This document shows, piece after piece, positions 5,480 through 21,556 of a stretch of 64,000 nucleotides of DNA (its first letter is position 1; each line of letters starts with the position of its first letter). The DNA is from an uncultured Alphaproteobacteria bacterium. Lineage in GTDB: Bacteria > Pseudomonadota > Alphaproteobacteria > HIMB59 > GCA-002718135. Location of the stretch: positions 8,423-72,422 of the forward strand of contig CACBMH010000002.1 in assembly GCA_902539825.1 (NCBI GenBank), read 5' to 3'. The notes under the pieces are model-generated. The model was not told where the DNA came from, did not search any database, and was given only the letters and a program-made list of their open reading frames with translations. The position numbers were made by a program, and so were the translations under genes.

Positions 5480-6561
5480 AAAAAAATTTTTTACTAATTA
5501 CAGGAGGAACAGGCGGGCATGTTATGCCAGCGAAAAATTTTGCTAATTATTTATCCATTAAAAATATAAATTGTACAATTATAACAGACAAAAGAGGTTA
5601 TAAATATTTTGGAAATTATAATGGAAAAATTTATATAATAAGTTCATCAAATTTAAATGGGAACATAATATTTAAAATCTTTGGTATATTTCAAATTTTA
5701 TTAGGATTAATTCAATCATTTATTATTATATTTTTATTAAAACCATCCCACTCTATTTCTTTTGGTAGTTATGCTTCATTTTCTCCAATGTTATCATGTA
5801 TTTTATTTAAATCATTCTATAAAGTTAAACTTTATATACATGAACAAAATTCAATAATAGGTAGAACAAATAAATTTTTTCTGAATTTTACAAATAAATT
5901 ATTTTTAAATTTCGATATCAAATATAAAATTAATTCAAAGTTTAAAGATAAAATATTTGTAGTAGGTTACCCAGAAAATAATTTTAAAAAAAATATTAAT
6001 TTAAGCAATAAAAATTCTGAAAGTATCTTTACAATTTTTATTTCCGGTGGAAGTCAAGGATCAGAATTTGTATCAAACTTTGCAACAAATCTAATTAAAA
6101 TTATAGACAATGAGAAAATTATAAAAGCTAAATTTATACTTCAGTGTCCTAAACATTTGATAAAAAAACAACAAGAAAAATTAAGAAATATTAAATCACA
6201 AATCATTTTTAAAGATTTTTTTATAAATGTTGATGAAATACTAGCTAATGCTAATCTAGTAATATGTAGAGCTGGAGCAGGCACAATTGTTGATTTAATC
6301 AACTTTAAACTTCCTTCGATATTAATTCCCTTACCTTCTTCAAAAGACAATCATCAATTTTTTAATGCTAAAATATTAGTTAAACATGACTTAGCCATAA
6401 TTATTGACCAAAATAATGATGATTTAGATAAAGCAAAAAGACATATTTATGAAACATATAGTAGTCCAAAAAAATTAGAATCAATGAATAAAAAATTTGA
6501 TATGATTCAAGTTAAAAACTCTAATACTTTAATTTATAAATTAATACTAAATGAAAATTAA
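5476..6561 (+). CDS. murG: UDP-N-acetylglucosamine--lipid I N-acetylglucosamine transferase
   Basis: GGTGGHVMPA N-terminal motif, CRAGAGT, dcw position. Confidence 0.85.
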   Translation: MKKNFLLITGGTGGHVMPAKNFANYLSIKNINCTIITDKRGYKYFGNYNGKIYIISSSNLNGNIIFKIFGIFQILLGLIQSFIIIFLLKPSHSISFGSYASFSPMLSCILFKSFYKVKLYIHEQNSIIGRTNKFFLNFTNKLFLNFDIKYKINSKFKDKIFVVGYPENNFKKNINLSNKNSESIFTIFISGGSQGSEFVSNFATNLIKIIDNEKIIKAKFILQCPKHLIKKQQEKLRNIKSQIIFKDFFINVDEILANANLVICRAGAGTIVDLINFKLPSILIPLPSSKDNHQFFNAKILVKHDLAIIIDQNNDDLDKAKRHIYETYSSPKKLESMNKKFDMIQVKNSNTLIYKLILNEN

Positions 6562-9757: not shown

Positions 9758-10531
9758 ATGAACAATATTAATAGAAGAAGATATGTTTTAAGTATCAGAT
9801 CATTTACTTATTTTTGTATTTTCCTATTTTTAATTATTTTTTCTTTATTAATATATTTTTACAAAAATAATTTAATTGAGACTTCTAAAAATATAATTCA
9901 GAGATTTTCAGAAAACTTCCAATATCAATTTACAAAATTTGATATTTCGGGTTTAGAGAAAATTGAATTAAGATTTGTAGAAGATAAAATACAAAAATAT
10001 ATACAGTCTTCAATTTTTTTATTACCATTAGATAAAATTAATAATTCAATCAAAGAAAACAATTGGGTTAAAGAAATTTATTTAAATACAAATTTTAAAG
10101 ATACCCTATTTATCCAGATTGAAGAATATATACCAATAGGCATCTATTATTTTAATAATAATTATTTTTTTTTTGATGAAAATGGAAAAATTATAGATCA
10201 AACTTATATTACAGATTTGTCTAATGAGTCACTAATAATATTCAAGGGTAATAACTCAAATTTAAAAGCCAATTCTATAATTAATATTTTAAAAAATAAT
10301 GATTTTATAAAAAAATATAAAATTGAGAATTTAGAATTTGTAAATAAAAGAAGATGGGATATAAATTTATTCAGTGATGTTAAATTAATGCTTTCAGAAG
10401 AAGATCCAAATGAATCTATAAAGAATTTTATTAAGATACAAAATAATCTTAGCGAAACAGATATTAATAATATAAAAACATATGATTTAAGAAATTTAAA
10501 AAAAACAATCTTAATTAATTTAAATGATTAA
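9758..10531 (+). CDS. ftsQ: cell division protein FtsQ
   Basis: single N-terminal TM helix plus POTRA-like region; position between ddl and ftsA. Confidence 0.7.
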   Translation: MNNINRRRYVLSIRSFTYFCIFLFLIIFSLLIYFYKNNLIETSKNIIQRFSENFQYQFTKFDISGLEKIELRFVEDKIQKYIQSSIFLLPLDKINNSIKENNWVKEIYLNTNFKDTLFIQIEEYIPIGIYYFNNNYFFFDENGKIIDQTYITDLSNESLIIFKGNNSNLKANSIINILKNNDFIKKYKIENLEFVNKRRWDINLFSDVKLMLSEEDPNESIKNFIKIQNNLSETDINNIKTYDLRNLKKTILINLND

Positions 10532-15876: not shown

Positions 15877-16507
15877 ATGAACAAACTTGTTTTACTTAGA
15901 CATGGTCAAAGTCAGTGGAATTTAGAAAATAGATTTACTGGTTGGAAAGATGTTCCATTAACTGAAAAAGGCATTAACGAAGCTAATAATGCAGGACGTC
16001 TATTAAAAAAACATAATATAAAAATTGATAAAGTTTTTAGTAGTGTTTTAGAAAGAGCAAATAAAACAGCAGAAATAGCTATGAAAGCATTAGAGATAGA
16101 AAATTTATATGAAAATGGAAATTTAATTTATGAAAAAAAACCAAAATCTAAATGAGAGGGATTATGGAGATTTAGTTGGTTTAAATAAAGCAGAAACTGC
16201 TGATAAATTTGGAAAAGAACAAGTACACATATGGAGAAGATCTTATGATATACCGCCTCCAAACGGGGAGAGTCTTAAGGATGTAGTTAATCGAGTTTCT
16301 CCTTATTTTACTGAAACAATTCAACCACATATTTTAAATAAAAAAAATGTTTTAATTGCAGCACATGGTAATTCCTTAAGAGCAATTATGATTAAAGTCG
16401 GTATGTACAAACCTGAAGAAATATCTTCTATAGAACTACCAACTGGTAGTCCATTGTGTTTAGACTACCAAAATGGCGAATTAATTGAACATTATTACTT
16501 AGATTAA
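15877..16507 (+). pseudogene. gpmA: 2,3-bisphosphoglycerate-dependent phosphoglycerate mutase, split into two ORFs (15877-16155, 16130-16507) by a +1 frameshift in an A8 run (16133-16140)
   Basis: N-part has [18 protein letters not shown]-part has LNERDYG and AAHGNSLRA; removing one A gives a continuous ...[13 protein letters not shown]... junction. Confidence 0.85.
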
Positions 16508-17514: not shown

Positions 17515-17880
17515 TTATTTTTTTAATTTTTCCCATTCAGCCATACCGCCAGTAATATTCTTAACATTTTTAATACCCATATCTTTCATTGTTTTAGTTG
17601 ATAAAGTTCCTTGTCCACCTACACCACAAAATACTACATATTCTTTATCAGGATTTTCTTTGAAAAATTTATTTTCTAAAGGACTACCTTCTGCCAAATA
17701 AAATTCAAGAAAAGCTCTATCCAAATGAATTGCATTTCCTATTGTTCCTTTATCAAAACTTTCTTTATCCCTAACATCAATAAATTGTACATTTGTATCA
17801 TTGAGTTTTTCTTTTGCTTCTTTTGCAGAAATATTTTCAATTTCATTTTTAACACTCATTAAATCTTCAAATTTTTTCAT
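17515..17880 (-). CDS. single-domain rhodanese-like sulfurtransferase
   Basis: FIDVRD...G.I..A.HL and active-site loop FCGVGGQG, C-terminal GGMAEW. Confidence 0.75.
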   Translation of the reverse strand: MKKFEDLMSVKNEIENISAKEAKEKLNDTNVQFIDVRDKESFDKGTIGNAIHLDRAFLEFYLAEGSPLENKFFKENPDKEYVVFCGVGGQGTLSTKTMKDMGIKNVKNITGGMAEWEKLKK

Positions 17881-18030
17881 TTTTTCCTTACATTATTTAA
17901 ATGGGCGTCTTTAGAACAACCTTAATTTTATTATATAAAGAAAATATTAGGTTTTTGGAAACTTCTTCGTAAAAACTTCGTAGATAGGTTTTTAGAAAAA
18001 TTATTGATATTACTAGATAATATTAAAAAA

Positions 18031-18248
18031 GTGGGGCGTTCTGTTGCTCGGTGCGTGAACTTTTCTCAATGCAAGGACGCGTGAGCGAACACCCAAAAGT
18101 TTAAGCATTTCCTTTATTATTCGCTTATTCTTTCTTAAAAAAGTTTATAGCACATGGTTATTAAAATATAAAATTTTTAATTAAAAAGACGCGTATCGGC
18201 CGCGTAAATTGAGGGCAATTAATTCAAGTTCGTGGTATTATTATCAAG
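18031..18248. repeat. core copy 1 plus L arm (218 nt up to the cargo ATG)
   Basis: aligns without gaps to 19879-20096; only 2 mismatches in the first ~119 nt; contains GACGCGT at 18076 and GACGCGTATCGGCCGCGT at 18188-18205. Confidence 0.9.
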
Positions 18249-18719
18249 ATGAAAAAAGTTTTGTTTATGTTTTTCTTGTTATTGTCGACAAATGTATTTT
18301 CTAAAAATCTTGATTACTTTAAAGGTAGTTGGCTTTGTATTGAAGAAAAGTCTTTAGGATACAATTGGAGTAATCTAGAGAGCAAATGGAAAAAAATAAC
18401 AAATTTTAAGTTAGAAAAACGCATTTTTAAAACATTTGATGATAGTGAATGCGAAGGTGTTAAGAAGAATAGTTATAATTTTTGTGCTAGTGTTTATAAA
18501 TTTGGACTAAAGCCATTATTCAAAACATATTTTTATCATGTTGATAAGAGTGAAAGTAATTGGTTAAATGAATCTTATGTTGGGGGTACTTCTTTTGGTG
18601 AATTTAAAATGTCCGAAAAAGGTGAATTTATTTATTCAGCTGGAATACCGGGCAACCCAACAAATTTAAATGATAAGGATTCAATGGTTATAAGTGTTGG
18701 TTCTTGTACGAAAATATAA
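18249..18719 (+). CDS. hypothetical secreted protein (156 aa, Sec signal peptide, 5 Cys in the mature part)
   Basis: ORF with N-terminal MKKVLFMFFLLLSTNVFS signal-like sequence; no family recognised. Confidence 0.55.
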   Translation: MKKVLFMFFLLLSTNVFSKNLDYFKGSWLCIEEKSLGYNWSNLESKWKKITNFKLEKRIFKTFDDSECEGVKKNSYNFCASVYKFGLKPLFKTYFYHVDKSESNWLNESYVGGTSFGEFKMSEKGEFIYSAGIPGNPTNLNDKDSMVISVGSCTKI

Positions 18720-18721
18720 AT

Positions 18722-19030
18722 ATGAATGAAAAAAATAAACACGCAAGATTTTTTGATTGTAAAACTTTAGAAGATTGTCACAACATTGGCATTTACCATC
18801 TAATGGATTTTCTTGAAATATTTGGTGGTGAAGATGTTGATGCATTCGTTGCCTCTGATGGTAGTCATTTTTTAGTTGATGCATATTCATTTAATGGAGA
18901 TCAAATTGGTTTAACTTTAAACGAAGAAGCAACAAAACTTTACAATAAAAATATGCCTAAGGATCAACAAAGAAAAATTTGGGGGCATTGTGTTAAGCTT
19001 GCTGAAGGTATCTATGAGGAAATTATATAA
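18722..19030 (+). CDS. hypothetical small acidic cytoplasmic protein (102 aa)
   Basis: ATG 3 nt after the upstream stop; no family recognised. Confidence 0.45.
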   Translation: MNEKNKHARFFDCKTLEDCHNIGIYHLMDFLEIFGGEDVDAFVASDGSHFLVDAYSFNGDQIGLTLNEEATKLYNKNMPKDQQRKIWGHCVKLAEGIYEEII

Positions 19031-19031
19031 A

Positions 19032-19757
19032 ATGAAAAATAAAAAATTAATAATTGATACCATGACAAAATTTGTATTCGAAGTTACTAAAAATATTGAT
19101 TATAAAAATGTATCTATAGTAATTATTGATGATCAAAAGTTTACTTCTTTTGATCAATTAAAAAATTTACTCATTTCTATTACTAAAAAAAATAAAAACT
19201 TACTTATAGTTAGACCAAATTGGCAAAAATGGGAAAATGCAATATTATCTGGAGATATTGCTGAGTTAGGAATTAAAAAAATTTCTCAAATATTCAAAAA
19301 AAATTTAGATGAAACAAAAAAATTGCTCGCTTCGTTTCCAAAAAGAAACAAAAATAAAGATAATTATTTTTATGGGGATGTTCTAAAAGAAGAAAATAGT
19401 GCAAATATTTTTAATTTAGTTTTTCAATTAAGATTAAGTTTTTATGATAAAACACCAAACGAACGTTCAAAATTATTAGATAAAAGTGATTGGTTTAGAG
19501 GCTATTATGAGCAAGTTATTCCCTTTCATAGAATTGGCAAAATAAAAATTATACCTATCTCAATAAATGATTTTAAAACTAAAAAGAATAAGCCTCAAGA
19601 TAACCTTTTAAATATTTTCGCTAACTTTACTGGAGCAAAAATAATTAAATCTGTGAAAACCGCAAAAGAAAAAGATATAGGATTTGTAAAAAAAATTACT
19701 TTAAACAAACAACCGAAAAATATTTATAGTAGCGATAAAATTACTTTAGTGAATTAG
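19032..19757 (+). CDS. hypothetical Lys-rich protein (241 aa)
   Basis: ATG 2 nt after the upstream stop (operon-like packing); no family recognised. Confidence 0.5.
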   Translation: MKNKKLIIDTMTKFVFEVTKNIDYKNVSIVIIDDQKFTSFDQLKNLLISITKKNKNLLIVRPNWQKWENAILSGDIAELGIKKISQIFKKNLDETKKLLASFPKRNKNKDNYFYGDVLKEENSANIFNLVFQLRLSFYDKTPNERSKLLDKSDWFRGYYEQVIPFHRIGKIKIIPISINDFKTKKNKPQDNLLNIFANFTGAKIIKSVKTAKEKDIGFVKKITLNKQPKNIYSSDKITLVN

Positions 19758-19804
19758 ATTTTTTTTAAAGCAATTATTAATATTATTTAATTTTTTCTTC
19801 GCAA

Positions 19805-20096
19805 GACGCGTATAGGACGCGTTTTATTGGAGCATTTCAGAAAGAACCCAATAATTAAAAGGAAATCTAGATTAACTAATGGGGCGTTCTGTTGCTCGGT
19901 GCGTGAACTTTTCTCAATGCAAGGACGCGTGAGCGAACACCCAAAAGTTTAAGCATTTCCTTTATTATTCGCTTATTCTTTCTAAAAAAAGTTTATATCA
20001 TTAATTTGTAAAAACATAAAATTTTTAATTTAAATGACGCGTATAGGACGCGTAAATTAAAGGCAATTATTCCAAGTTTATGTTAATGTAAATTAT
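19805..20096. repeat. complete R arm - core copy 2 - L arm junction (attP-like composite)
   Basis: left part aligns to 21135-21231 and right part to 18031-18248; carries GACGCGTATAGGACGCGT twice (19805-19822, 20036-20053). Confidence 0.9.
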
Positions 20097-21044
20097 ATGA
20101 AAAAATTTTTAGTTTTGATAGTTCTAGTTTGTTTTTCACCATCAATTTTTACGAAAGAATTGAATTGTTTTTTGGGTACTAAAAATATTAATAGTAAAAT
20201 ACAGGGATTTACTGAGGATGGTAAATTTGTTGAATGGTATGATACACTAAAAATAGATAATCTTAATGAAGATTATGATTTAAATTTACATATATTAGAA
20301 GATAAAAATAATAATCTGATTATACAAAAGCAAAAATACATAAGTGATTTTAATACAAAACTATATCCTTTAGTACAATTCCCCGATGAAAATATTTTGA
20401 TTTATTTAATAATACTTGGTGTACTTAAAGATCATAATAATGACTCACTAAATCCTCAATTAAGTTTATTAGAAATATCAGAAATAATTAAATCAAATAA
20501 TTTCACCTATGACGATGTATTAAAAAACATTGAATACATCTATCAAAAAGATTTTAATTTAAAATATGAAGGAAATAATAATCTTGGTCCATATGGAATA
20601 CTTTCTACTAGTTTAGATTTAGCTAAAATATTATTGGAAGATTATTCTAACGAACAAATTGTACAATATTTCAAACAAATAATGGATGTATACGATAATG
20701 ATCTAAAAAAATGGAAACAAGGCATTACATTTAATGATCCAATTTATTTAAATTTAGATAATAAAGATATTGCTTCTACTTGTTACAATATGATGAGTGA
20801 AGATAAATTTCTAAATACTTCAATAGCAACAAGCGAAATAAAACTATGTTTACAAGAGAATAATTCAGATAATTTAAAAATGAACAATATATATGAAACT
20901 TTTAAAGATAAAAAAATAAATGATTATTCTTATCTAATTAATTATTCTCTAAATCAAAATTATTCAATTCATAAAGATGAAGGTTTTTTACGTGGTGAAC
21001 ATAATAGAATTCTAGAAAGATTTTATTATGGTTTTTGTGAGTGA
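20097..21044 (+). CDS. hypothetical secreted protein (315 aa, Sec signal peptide)
   Basis: N-terminal MKKFLVLIVLVCFSPSIFT signal-like sequence; no family recognised. Confidence 0.55.
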   Translation: MKKFLVLIVLVCFSPSIFTKELNCFLGTKNINSKIQGFTEDGKFVEWYDTLKIDNLNEDYDLNLHILEDKNNNLIIQKQKYISDFNTKLYPLVQFPDENILIYLIILGVLKDHNNDSLNPQLSLLEISEIIKSNNFTYDDVLKNIEYIYQKDFNLKYEGNNNLGPYGILSTSLDLAKILLEDYSNEQIVQYFKQIMDVYDNDLKKWKQGITFNDPIYLNLDNKDIASTCYNMMSEDKFLNTSIATSEIKLCLQENNSDNLKMNNIYETFKDKKINDYSYLINYSLNQNYSIHKDEGFLRGEHNRILERFYYGFCE

Positions 21045-21134
21045 TTTAAGATTATTTCTTGTTATTTAAAATCCTAGTGTTTTAATTTACAATCATGAAG
21101 GCGATGTTTGATAATCAAATTTTTTAATTGAAAT

Positions 21135-21231
21135 GACGCGTATATGACGCGTGAAGCTGGAGCATTTTAAAAAAAACTACAGAAATAAACTAAAAATCAA
21201 GAATGTAGTGGGGCGTTCTGTTGCTCGGTGC
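21135..21231. repeat. R arm copy 2 plus core copy 3 (core = 3' end of ssrA)
   Basis: GACGCGTATATGACGCGT (21135-21152) and TGGAGCATTT box as in 19805-19840; 97 nt versus 98 nt from arm site to end of core. Confidence 0.85.
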
Positions 21232-21453
21232 CCCCGACCGCGCTTACCTAGAATCTAGGCAGCAAGTGCTAATCTATTATCGTTAGCGTTTATAAAATAG
21301 CCCGATAACGGTGGTACAATACCGGATAAAGTCTTTGTCTTTGAATTACCGTCAAACCTATTTCGTCCCCATATTGGTGGAGACGCCGGGTACTGCCCCC
21401 GGGTCCGAATAACTTATTGCACAAAGCATTTATTATCTTAGTTGCAAGGCAAC
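21208..21453 (-). ncRNA. ssrA: circularly permuted (two-piece) tmRNA gene: acceptor piece (to CCA at 21375), 4-nt spacer, coding piece (from GGGG at 21370)
   Basis: minus strand reads ...CCGGG-GGCAGTA-CCCGG-CGTCTCC-ACCA / ATAT / GGGGACG...; acceptor stem GGGGACG:CGUCUCC with G3:U; tag frame GCT AAC GAT AAT AGA TTA GCA CTT GCT GCC TAG = ANDNRLALAA* (21255-21287); 5' limit is inferred from the putative promoter. Confidence 0.85.
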
Positions 21454-21459
21454 ATATTC

Positions 21460-21487
21460 ATTATACCTTAAACTATTTATACTTGAA
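21460..21487 (-). promoter_or_regulatory. putative sigma70-type promoter of ssrA
   Basis: minus strand TTCAAG (21487-21482), 16-nt spacer, TATAAT (21465-21460); sequence match only. Confidence 0.4.
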
Positions 21488-21556
21488 AGATTTGTCTTGA
21501 AACCTAGCAATTAAAAAAAAAAATTGTTACTAATTAAGACATAAAATAAAAAAAAT

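Follow-up and report, generated by a model that had tools for sequence, protein, structure and literature searches.

CIMEs of Streptococcus and other Firmicutes (ICEberg 2.0, PMC6323972) carry attL and attR sites that match an autonomous relative's, have no genes for integrase, excisionase or transfer, lie in tandem at the target of that relative and have been proposed to move through its integrase or together with it, by accretion. Tycheposons of Prochlorococcus (Hackl et al., 10.1101/2020.12.28.424599, later in Cell) also inhabit streamlined ocean bacteria. According to the accessible text of that preprint, they combine an inward-facing tyrosine recombinase at one end with a small primase/helicase module and integrate at genes for tRNAs or tmRNA; partial gene copies separate tandem elements, and remnants form islands, relative to which intact elements are rare. 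VEIMEs (Eppley et al. 2022, PMC9618062) are small elements of marine bacteria, including Pelagibacter, that carry a tyrosine integrase and replication genes and occur both as concatemers and integrated in Pelagibacter genomes; one Pelagibacter-associated VEIME module carries periplasmic serine proteases. Among the flexible islands of SAR11 (Microbiome 2025, PMC11796062) one is bounded by the tmRNA gene, partial tRNA repeats mark cassette insertion at four tRNA-linked islands, and integrases are almost absent.

The locus compared here with these systems lies in a 64,000-nucleotide stretch of DNA (the window). Its array at 17902-21231 probably consists of three units without integrase, docked sequentially by site-specific recombination at the 3' end of ssrA, the tmRNA gene, with units E1 and E2 as non-autonomous partners of autonomous elements. 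The comparisons demonstrate insertion at the core, a common att architecture and the existence of a cognate integrase element, and the origin of E1, E2 and a cargo-less stump by integration is well supported. The three are best read as CIME-like non-autonomous partners of tycheposon/VEIME-like elements. As in CIMEs, E1 and E2 have related attL and attR sites, which agree with the attP of the autonomous contig L121 in layout and in the GACGCGT motif; they hold no recombination or transfer genes, stand in tandem at the target of the autonomous element, and are likewise proposed to move by accretion or through a foreign integrase. In contrast to CIMEs, whose partners are conjugative, the partner here is a 5.8-kb element with an integrase and a primase-helicase, the units show no descent from an integrative conjugative element, and they are much smaller (0.7-2.7 kb), far outnumber their partners and display at least eight arm-site specificities at one target. 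The array resembles tycheposons in its integration at a gene for tRNA or tmRNA that adjoins a genomic island, and two partner elements (L114 and L121) likewise possess a tyrosine recombinase and a primase/helicase. In contrast, these hallmark genes are absent from E1 and E2, and the accessible text of the preprint reports neither full arm-site sets in units without integrase nor covariation of motif and integrase (10.1101/2020.12.28.424599). The partners also resemble VEIMEs, although PMC9618062 concerns integrase-bearing satellites and has neither att sites nor tmRNA in its main text. Similarly, the main text of PMC11796062 has no arm structure, arm families, cognate integrases or autonomous partner. 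The phenomenon in general is already known and the window array adds a variant; the sequence-only reading knew of no description of the arrangement, whereas CIMEs, tycheposons, VEIMEs and the SAR11 tmRNA island are all related kinds.

The repeat that delimits the units, GTGGGGCGTTCTGTTGCTCGGTGC, occurs three times on the + strand (Table 1), and no chance copy arose in 100 dinucleotide-preserving shuffles. The match of ssrA to the Rfam alpha_tmRNA model is complete (positions 1-355, E 1.4e-63) and ARAGORN calls a permuted tmRNA with tag peptide ANDNRLALAA; because of these two results, the repeat is the 3'-terminal segment of ssrA as modelled. With three core copies, the locus displays the direct repeat of the gene end and the restored gene that characterize elements at tRNA and tmRNA 3' ends. 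The sequence-only reading had placed the repeat at the end of ssrA with two further copies, and every coordinate and match count was confirmed; its 24-nt core stands as three copies, but the strict core is only 22 nt, GGGGCGTTCTGTTGCTCGGTGC, and the two preceding bases vary with the R arm. Position 16 of the core is T or C and tracks either the ssrA side or the L-arm side (L022, L029, L042, L063); since the polymorphism stays with one side, the crossover is placed within the first 15 nt of the core.

Table 1 Features of the ssrA array and its left anchor, in window coordinates
Feature	Position	Strand	Details
Rhodanese-like gene, 121 aa; conserved left anchor outside the elements	17515..17880	-	ORF; 32 loci have its homologue (cluster 4) beside the array
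Probable decayed partial core, ATGGGCGTCTTTAG vs ATGGGGCGTTCTGT	17902..17915	+	Probable left end of the oldest element; weak sequence identity
Cargo-less H-type element remnant (stump)	17916..18030	+	Left and right arm pieces joined across ACTTCGTAG repeats, 17961-17983; ends in R-arm tail TTATTGATATTACTAGATAATATTAAAAAA
Core copy 1, attL core of E1	18031..18054	+	24/24; strict 22-nt part 18033-18054
E1 L arm, one attP half	18055..18248	+	Putative proximal arm-type site GGACGCGT 18075-18082
E1 L arm A-tract segment, conserved	18086-18150	+	
E1 L arm distal tandem pair, 11-bp period	GACGCGT 18188-18194; GCCGCGT 18199-18205	+	
E1 cargo, three ORFs	18249..19757	+	ORF list; no family match
E1 ORF 1, 156 aa	18249-18719	+	Signal-peptide-like N-terminus MKKVLFMFFLLLSTNVFS
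E1 ORF 2, 102 aa	18722-19030	+	
E1 ORF 3, 241 aa	19032-19757	+	
E1 R arm	19758..19878	+	GACGCGT pair 19805-19811, 19816-19822, then conserved GGAGCATTTCAGAAAGAAC segment
Core copy 2	19879..19902	+	23/24; with both arms, a complete attP-like R-core-L junction
E2 L arm	19903..20096	+	Proximal GGACGCGT 19923-19930; distal GACGCGT pair 20036-20042, 20047-20053
E2 cargo, one 315-aa ORF	20097..21044	+	Signal-peptide-like N-terminus MKKFLVLIVLVCFSPSIFT
E2 R arm	21045..21207	+	GACGCGT pair 21135-21141, 21146-21152, then GGAGCATTTTAAAAAAAAC
Core copy 3	21208-21231	+	24/24; final 24 nt of ssrA
ssrA, two-piece (permuted) alphaproteobacterial tmRNA gene	21207..21492	-	RF01849 220.5 bits; RF04321 149 bits

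Each unit would be composed of core, L arm, cargo and R arm, the next core restoring ssrA and the cargo being read from the L arm towards ssrA. E1 measures 1848 bp and E2 1329 bp, and the third unit is the stump, which lacks cargo. Thus the two docked units of the sequence-only reading stand and the total rises to three, since what it took for chromosomal flank (17902-18030) aligns to H-type elements of other genomes. Window positions 17903-17992 are ~90% identical to the left side of the H-type element and positions 17958-18030 are 90-94% identical to its right side; the complete element encodes a 173-aa minus-strand gene (L014, L030, L068, L021, L060), and the R-arm family of the stump has 38 members. 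The partial core lies 21 nt past the rhodanese start, where empty sites hold the core, and in H-type elements elsewhere the left-end core is likewise cut down to its first 12-14 nt (L053, L045).

The L arms of E1 and E2 each measure 218 nt from core start to cargo ATG and are identical at 189 of the 218 positions without gaps; the first 119 nt hold 2 differences, at positions 1 and 106. R arm plus core amounts to 98 nt in E1 and 97 nt in E2. Remeasurement gave the arm lengths and the L-arm likeness of the sequence-only reading, whose R-arm figures include the core. About 55 nt from the core, the R arm displays the 7-bp GACGCGT as a tandem pair (11-bp period); in the L arm a single site lies at ~20 nt and a second pair at ~135 nt from the core, with conserved A-tract segments in between. 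A motif of 7-9 bp, specific to each arm family, stands as a tandem pair with an 11-bp period in both arms, plus an extra copy near the core. Alignment of 41 L arms revealed one layout throughout with a motif that differs between families (GACGCGT, TTACGCG, AGTCGCC, AACGGCAC, TTACGCAC or GGCCGCG); 28 alignment columns do not vary among these arms, which represent at least six motif families. Beyond the window, genomes and metagenomes yielded 35 core-to-core units of 170-2663 bp, none with an integrase, and 11 of them, as well as E1 and E2, carry the same tandem motif in both arms. The attP of lambda, L5, HP1 and P4-type elements spans ~250 bp, with closely spaced direct-repeat arm-type sites flanking a short core and A-tracts in between. 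The arms described here have this site geometry and the cognate integrases a similarly separate N-terminal region, which suggests that the arms are two halves of a lambda-type attP whose motifs an integrase may bind. In contrast to the lambda type, the end of a two-piece tmRNA gene serves as the core and the arms, with their putative binding sites, persist on units without integrase.

The ssrA 3' site of SAR11 is a hypervariable array. In a comparison with about 60 SAR11 single-cell genomes, 29 genomes show spacers between rhodanese gene and ssrA that range from 20 bp, the empty state, up to 5.9 kb. The sequence-only reading had pointed to several kinds of locus as informative, and each was encountered: empty sites, in which 20-22 bp separate the rhodanese start codon from core-ssrA (L043, L058, L062), arrays of other copy number, as seen in the spacer range, the same arms enclosing other cargo (L039, L051, L056, L103), and integrase-bearing R-core-L elements (L121-L123, plus L086, L105-L107, L109 and L111-L115). 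E1 itself recurs in another array, L099, where it is 99% identical over 796 nt and has a different left neighbour. The empty sites, the varied arrays and the integrase-bearing element support the successive site-specific integrations at ssrA that had been proposed. An integrase gene occurs at the site in one of the ~60 single-cell genomes (L053), split into two reading frames; encounters between integrase and cassette would therefore be rare. Decayed and half cores are common among the arrays.

The enzyme that adjoins arms of this type was found in metagenome contigs. A tyrosine integrase of 336-347 aa (PF00589, E 3e-31) lies directly beside the R-arm pair and starts 74-99 nt from the core (L086, L105, L106, L107, L109, L111-L115, L121-L127); the R arms of mini-elements and of integrase genes are in register and their match ends at the integrase gene start. 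R199, K224, H286, R289, H312 and Y321, invariant in 29 homologues, fit the catalytic R-K-H-R-H-Y set of heterobivalent integrases. With the L106 integrase as reference, identity over residues 1-45 is 82-89% in the other two ACGCG-type enzymes and 47-66% in the five of other families, and over the remainder of the protein 67-92%. The N-terminus changes with the arm motif, and this covariation, over eight integrase/motif pairs, accompanies the expected geometry of putative arm-type sites flanking the core. The GACGCGT-type integrase resides on a 5,811-bp element with a DUF5906 primase-helicase and a full R-core-L attP (GACGCGT sites, 22/22 core). L121 has a 127-nt terminal overlap, and L122 and L123, from other samples, wrap round the same unit at 99.6-99.8% identity, as a circle or a concatemer would. 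The partner elements consist of integrase, small ORFs and DUF5906 primase-helicase, and no conjugation genes were seen in them. Outside the motifs the window arms are only about 65% alike to those of the GACGCGT-type element; their cognate recognition would depend on the motif alone. Searches of IMG/VR and of cultured phages found no member of the integrase family above 32% identity; transfer of the elements in virions is not supported by these data.

Inside the window no integrase was detected by tblastn with five cognate integrases as queries (E<=1e-3), and a family HMM, applied without filters to all six reading frames in translation, reached at best E 0.29. The sequence-only reading, which saw no integrase in the units or in the 64 kb, agrees with both searches, and E1 and E2 thus lack the internal integrase gene of tyrosine-integrase islands. 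The putative reader of their arm sites would be the 336-347 aa integrase with its N-terminal arm-binding region, encoded outside the window, and the autonomous relatives would be the 5.8-kb circular or concatemeric elements with integrase, DUF5906 primase-helicase and the same R-core-L attP. Excision and integration of E1 and E2 may proceed with the cognate integrase supplied in trans, as the intact matched arm sites suggest; alternatively, both may leave jointly with an autonomous element docked alongside. Mobilisation may continue today, with possible cell-to-cell transfer via virions or vesicles. No excised mini-element circle was seen, although in assemblies such a circle would look the same as a tandem array. 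E1 and E2 look like hitch-hikers through which a genome nearly devoid of mobile DNA gains new genes.

A wider proposal is that the SAR11 tmRNA gene is a population-wide cassette exchange, in which hundreds of tiny units (0.7-2.7 kb) would hold only cargo and a full split attP, selection on the arm sites would keep them mobile, the movers would be rare 5.8-kb satellite-like elements with at least eight integrase/arm-site specificities, and the L arm would double as cargo promoter; as a package this is a tentative possibility. E1, E2 and the stump might instead be dead remnants of integrase-bearing elements that lost integrase and replication genes by deletion, with no further site-specific movement, the arrays differing only through homologous recombination at arms, cores and flanks and through further deletion. 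Homologous recombination is very frequent in SAR11. The rarity of the integrase at the site and its split copy, the deletion between repeated arm motifs that the stump displays (17916-18030) and the frequency of decayed cores all speak for such fossils. The accessible text of the tycheposon study likewise describes islands of remnants with few intact elements (10.1101/2020.12.28.424599). Loss of function does not, however, account for the 13 units of unrelated cargo in which all three arm-site positions are intact and match, for the 28 invariant columns in 41 L arms of at least six motif families, or for the near-identity of the E1 and E2 L arms (2 differences in 119 nt) around unrelated cargo. 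The unit boundaries are also exact, at the cores and at the expected 5' start of the integrase, which independent random deletions would not be expected to produce, and this reading appears rather unlikely.

Two further explanations dispense with the phage-type integrase. If the ssrA 3' end and the region downstream had been duplicated in tandem or multiplied by unequal crossing-over, and the intervening sequence had since diverged, tandem direct repeats with similar adjoining sequence would result, yet the cargo is unrelated between units and the arms have no counterpart in empty-site sequence; the precise empty sites, the integrase genes adjoining the same arms and the R-core-L of the circular element contradict a local duplication, which is highly improbable. 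The ACGCGT-N5-ACGCGT palindromes, able to fold into 5-6 bp hairpins, might be attC-like and recombine as single strands through an integron integrase, with ssrA as attI. The units do resemble integron cassettes in being small, promoter-proximal, mostly promoterless-looking, mostly of one orientation, at a fixed chromosomal site and drawn from a population-wide pool. Other arm families, however, hold non-foldable direct repeats (AGTCGCC, AACGGCAC, ACTTCGTAG, TTACGACGAG) at the same positions, the site of recombination consists of 22 nt identical to a gene end, and the integrase adjoining the arms, 336 aa long, is of the ordinary phage type and covaries in its N-terminus with the arm motif. In contrast to integron cassettes, the units have no attC hairpins, IntI or attI, a full attP is split into two arms, and recombination would be double-stranded, of lambda type. 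The non-palindromic arm families, which are the majority, and the enzyme beside the arms contradict an integron-type origin, which we regard as extremely improbable, and the integron-like platform of the sequence-only reading fails as a mechanism, the arm motifs being direct repeats for a lambda-type integrase and not folded attC.

The flexible gene pool of SAR11 is very large, yet the usual mobile elements are almost missing, and the route of gene entry is at stake. Docking of integrase-free partners of autonomous elements would provide a concrete mechanism, with a 22-nt target at the ssrA end, a set attP layout and a 5.8-kb autonomous partner. The integrase family has a readable specificity, its N-terminus pairing with a 7-9 bp motif, and the integrase/arm-motif pairs form a natural series for the evolution of arm-site specificity. 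The ratio of cassettes to partners bears on the question whether, in streamlined genomes, gene cargo moves about by parasitizing satellites. If the units were fossils only, the locus would be an ordinary additive island of the kind already described in Prochlorococcus; if the population-wide exchange were true, it would be a lambda-type functional equivalent of the integron and a main acquisition route for secreted-protein genes in the ocean's most abundant bacterium.

The four cargo ORFs of E1 and E2 have no Pfam, PHROG or PADLOC match, and no second copy of the E2 cargo occurs in any retrieved locus. The cargo of E1 is unrelated to that of E2, as the sequence-only reading had stated and as ORF and cross-locus comparison confirmed. 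A relative of E1 ORF 3, 80% identical, lies in L048 between arms of another family. Trypsin-like proteases are a recurrent cargo at the SAR11 ssrA site.

The 24-mer GTGGGGCGTTCTGTTGCTCGGTGC lies on the + strand at positions 18031, 19879 (with one mismatch) and 21208, and dinucleotide-preserving shuffles yield zero matches to this core repeat. The tmRNA gene ssrA is placed full-length by Rfam, with ARAGORN in agreement; therefore the repeat is the terminal stretch of ssrA. The claim of the sequence-only reading that a 24-nt ssrA end occurs three times in the same orientation thus holds for its positions, its mismatch and against shuffling. Re-measurement likewise reproduces the arm figures given there. 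The L arms of the two integrase-less units, E1 and E2, are 218 nt each and identical at 189 of 218 positions, with 2 differences within the first 119 nt; the R arms together with their cores come to 98 and 97 nt. E1 carries three cargo ORFs and E2 a single one; all four lie on the + strand, and two encode signal-peptide-like N-termini. The cargo is unrelated between the units, as had been claimed, and has no match in Pfam, PHROGs or PADLOC. A sigma-70 promoter scan is uninformative in this AT-rich DNA (24 sites against 23.9 expected). On the minus strand, the L-arm segment GGGUGUUC is able to pair with GAACGCCC in the displaced core, one of the pairs being G-U (window 18055-18094 and 19903-19942); the + strand version contains a C-A mismatch. 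At core 1 the minus-strand pairing precedes a U run, and it may act as a terminator for leftward transcripts; the position of the core pairing with the L-arm AACACCC segment is not constant across families. Further left, a phosphoglycerate-mutase-like (histidine phosphatase) gene at 15877-16507 is broken into overlapping ORFs of 92 aa and 125 aa; its relatives have a single ORF of 209-225 aa (cluster 10), and the split is due to a frameshift, to pseudogene formation or to an error in sequencing.

Features of the ssrA locus and of a possibly composite partner locus (L111)
Feature	Sequence	Position	Strand	Remarks
ssrA, alphaproteobacterial two-piece tmRNA gene	window	21207-21492	minus	Rfam full-length, 220.5 bits, E 1.4e-63; ARAGORN concordant
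Probable partial core, weak	window	17902-17915		21 nt after rhodanese start; exact position of the core in empty sites
Second, different integrase, 386 aa	L111	6685-7845	minus	PHROG 1, E 7e-73; ~5.4 kb from the ssrA-adjacent integrase

Scanning 20 nt of the core against one genome per species returned 68 loci, nearly all from Pelagibacteraceae single-cell genomes. The oriented loci have common anchors: to the left a gene for a 121-aa rhodanese-like protein, and to the right ssrA, DHFR and thymidylate synthase. Among the 29 genomes spanning both anchors, the rhodanese-ssrA spacer contains 0-4 recognisable full or half cores and ranges from 20-22 bp in L043, L058 and L062 up to 5.9 kb; the empty sites and the arrays of other copy number that had been proposed as checks are thus both found. 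Hardly any two loci carry the same genes between the anchors, most island clusters being singletons (149 ORF clusters), and in most units the cargo is read towards ssrA. It includes methyltransferases, glycosyltransferases, trypsin-like proteases, one polysaccharide lyase and many unknowns. Pfam families listed for 68 representative island ORFs (25 of 78) include methyltransferases, glycosyltransferases, trypsin-like peptidase, sulfatase and similar, and no recombinase. The E1 cassette recurs in another array (L099), 99% identical over 796 nt.

What had been taken for chromosomal flank before core 1 is the remnant of a third element. This sequence, TTATTGATATTACTAGATAATATTAAAAAA, is the right end of a unit in most genomes, and the unit it terminates (H-type) has a repeated motif of its own, ACTTCGTAG, and encodes a 173-aa protein on the minus strand. 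Window positions 17903-17992 align with the left side of the H-type unit and 17958-18030 with its right side, and the overlap of the two matches coincides with the motif repeats; thus the 173-aa gene was deleted between the left and right motif pairs. H-type left ends retain just the first 12-14 nt of the core (L053, L045). The 173-aa gene, which adjoins ssrA in most genomes, was also considered as a resident recombinase and rejected: the sole match of its product is a weak HEAT-like one (Cnd1, E 0.0035), and none is to a recombinase.

A fixed layout emerges when 38 L and 95 R arms are clustered and 41 L arms are aligned. Starting at the core, the L arm comprises GTGAAC, one 7-9 bp site at a distance of ~20 nt, a conserved segment (AACACCCAAAAGTTTAAGCATTTCCT ... 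GCTTATTCTTTCTTAAAAAAGTTTATA) and, ~135 nt out, a distal tandem pair in which this site recurs with an 11-bp period. Most of the 28 invariant columns of the 41 L arms fall in the conserved segment and the remainder in the core. In the R arm this site is again paired, at ~55 nt from the core, and a GGAGCATTTTAAAAAAAAC-like sequence comes next. The site itself differs between families: GACGCGT in both window units, elsewhere TTACGCG, AGTCGCC, GGCCGCG, AACGGCAC, TTACGCAC, TTACGACGAG, AGTGTGCAC, ACTTCGTAG and others. By this layout the arms are recognised as putative halves of a lambda-type attP. Complete core-to-core units number 35 and span 170-2663 bp; a matching tandem motif is present in both arms of 13, including the two of the window. 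Clearly mismatched units terminate in an H-type R arm and are read as composites hiding an unrecognised half core. The ACGCGT sequence is palindromic, so the pairs of the window can also fold. Hairpins acting as terminators or attC sites are nevertheless rejected, since the corresponding positions in other families hold non-palindromic repeats; those arms cannot fold, which favours reading the pairs as direct repeats recognised by a protein.

A metagenome scan with the core and the first bases of the L arm recovered 27 short contigs, five of which carry a minus-strand ORF of 336-347 aa that starts 74-99 nt from the core and abuts the R-arm pair. The product is a tyrosine recombinase (PF00589, E 3e-31); positions that fit the catalytic R, K, H, R, H, Y set do not vary across 29 homologues. 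A large protein collection contains 418 relatives at E<=1e-30, and the nearest cultured-phage integrases are ~30% identical. The gene occurs in two arrangements, beside R arm-core-ssrA (L111-L113, L115, L116-L119, L125) and beside a complete R-core-L junction (L086, L106, L107, L114, L121-L123, L126), the latter being the element that the sequence-only reading had suggested looking for. The integrase N-terminus varies with the arm motif: MSS[VL]RKEKxGRWR[AG]EV is paired with ACGCG-type sites, MAYIRKVxNKWRVEIKF with AGTCGCC, MGSLRKYKNKWRAEARHN with AACGGCAC, MGSVRKYRTKWRGEARYN with [GT]ACGGCAC and MATIRKQKSGKWRAEIRQQ with TACGCTC. With the L106 integrase as reference, identity over residues 1-45 is 82-89% for the two other ACGCG-type proteins and 47-66% for five from other families; over the remainder of the protein it is 67-92%. 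This covariation is what an arm-binding N-terminal domain would show. In another SAR11 lineage (L116-L119) a 330-aa variant, 63% identical to the cassette-associated integrase, lies beside an ssrA ending in GTTGCCCGGTGC and is followed by constant neighbours (a 151-aa ORF, TauD, DUF1737 and a Cys/Met-metabolism enzyme). An identical protein turns up in 154 indexed blocks of the protein collection, no second core is found within 6.7 kb, and this may be a fixed or domesticated element.

The GACGCGT-type integrase (P0009) is found on three contigs of 5938, 5927 and 5862 nt from three samples. All three show a single gene order in circularly permuted form, with the integrase followed by four small ORFs, a 719-aa DUF5906 primase-helicase, two further small ORFs and attP. 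An exact 127-nt terminal overlap reduces L121 to a 5,811-bp unit, around which L122 and L123 wrap with 99.6-99.8% identity. The molecule is circular or concatemeric; the loci noted for this element are the whole of L121, L122, L123 and L107. Its attP reads ATGACGCGTAAATGACGCGT, ~55 nt, core, ATGACGCGT at ~20 nt and TTACGCGTATATGACGCGT at ~125 nt, with a core identical to the ssrA end at 22/22 positions. The L arms of mini-elements L096 and L097 are ~88% identical to that of the partner. Mini-element R arms are in register with integrase-adjacent R arms, the similarity ending at the integrase gene start. A subclass is made up of the L arms from integrase-bearing elements (L086, L106, L107, L114, L121, L024 at 6171-6362 and L042 at 1661-1852). 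It is distinguished from mini-element L arms by a 9-nt alignment gap immediately before the distal pair; beyond that pair comes TTTATGCTCGGTGGTC, a repeat of the core's right half (TGCTCGGTG). Past the partner L arm, a ~500-nt non-coding stretch holds a GC-rich inverted repeat amid AT-rich DNA, seen in the related L106, and could be an origin of replication; Rfam gave no match on the circular element. Other partners differ in content. L114 encodes a DUF5906 primase and a decayed trypsin gene, while L111 encodes an excisionase-like HTH_17 protein and a primosomal fragment adjoining the second integrase; no core copy was detected between its two integrases, and it may be nested or composite.

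Recombination at the core brought in the window units, which have the attP layout of the integrase-bearing elements; an element with a cognate-type integrase circulates in the ocean. A T/C polymorphism at core position 16 tracks the right-hand sequence in L022, L029, L042 and L063, and H-type units share just 12-14 nt of core; for both reasons we infer a crossover within the first 15 nt. When present, the GACGCGT-type integrase would excise and integrate E1 and E2, which might alternatively leave joined to an autonomous element docked alongside, and transfer between cells would follow the partner's own route. For related elements, published work points to virions or vesicles (PMC9618062; 10.1101/2020.12.28.424599). 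In the main rival, which we regard as rather unlikely, the units no longer move and are fossils that homologous recombination has reshuffled. In the genome loci, tblastn with the integrase finds one match, a split copy in L053 (506-1509). This locus and L024 both lie on contig CACIBE010000006.1 of AG-912-N10, the only single-cell genome with an integrase in its array. The gene is in 181-aa and 142-aa pieces between the mini-element array and an H-type unit, thus integrase-bearing and integrase-less units can share one array.

In functional class the window units correspond to cis-mobilizable elements (CIMEs; PMC6323972), a class of att-flanked elements that lack an integrase and depend on an autonomous relative. 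In ecological terms their counterpart is the tycheposons of Prochlorococcus, which occupy tRNA and tmRNA sites, stand in tandem with partial gene copies in between and leave remnants behind; related elements are reported from Alphaproteobacteria (10.1101/2020.12.28.424599). The 5.8-kb partner is probably related to Pelagibacter-associated VEIME satellites, some of which carry periplasmic serine proteases (PMC9618062). One island at a tmRNA gene and very few integrases are reported in a SAR11 pangenome study of 2025 (PMC11796062). The sequence-only reading knew of no description of such an arrangement. That does not hold for the general kind, already known from CIMEs and tycheposons. No published description was found of four features, namely complete arm-site sets on integrase-less units, family-specific arm motifs, the covariation of these motifs with the integrase, and the excess of mini-units relative to partners at a single site.

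A phage origin of attP finds no support, since blastn of the R-core-L junction, a check proposed earlier, gave a spurious 41-nt match only among 50,697 phage records. Exact IMG/VR scans for the core, an L-arm segment and the GACGCGT pair returned nothing relevant. IMG/VR searches with a single integrase protein and with an alignment gave one 26% match and no member of the family. A looser IMG/VR core scan returned nine contigs, rejected as attP sites and recognised as carrying tmRNA genes of another alphaproteobacterial type. These low-GC viral contigs (L075-L083) have tmRNA genes that look phage-borne rather than attachment sites; in L076 the gene (around 10037-10057) has phage-like neighbours, among them two ribonucleotide reductase-like ORFs (776 and 366 aa).
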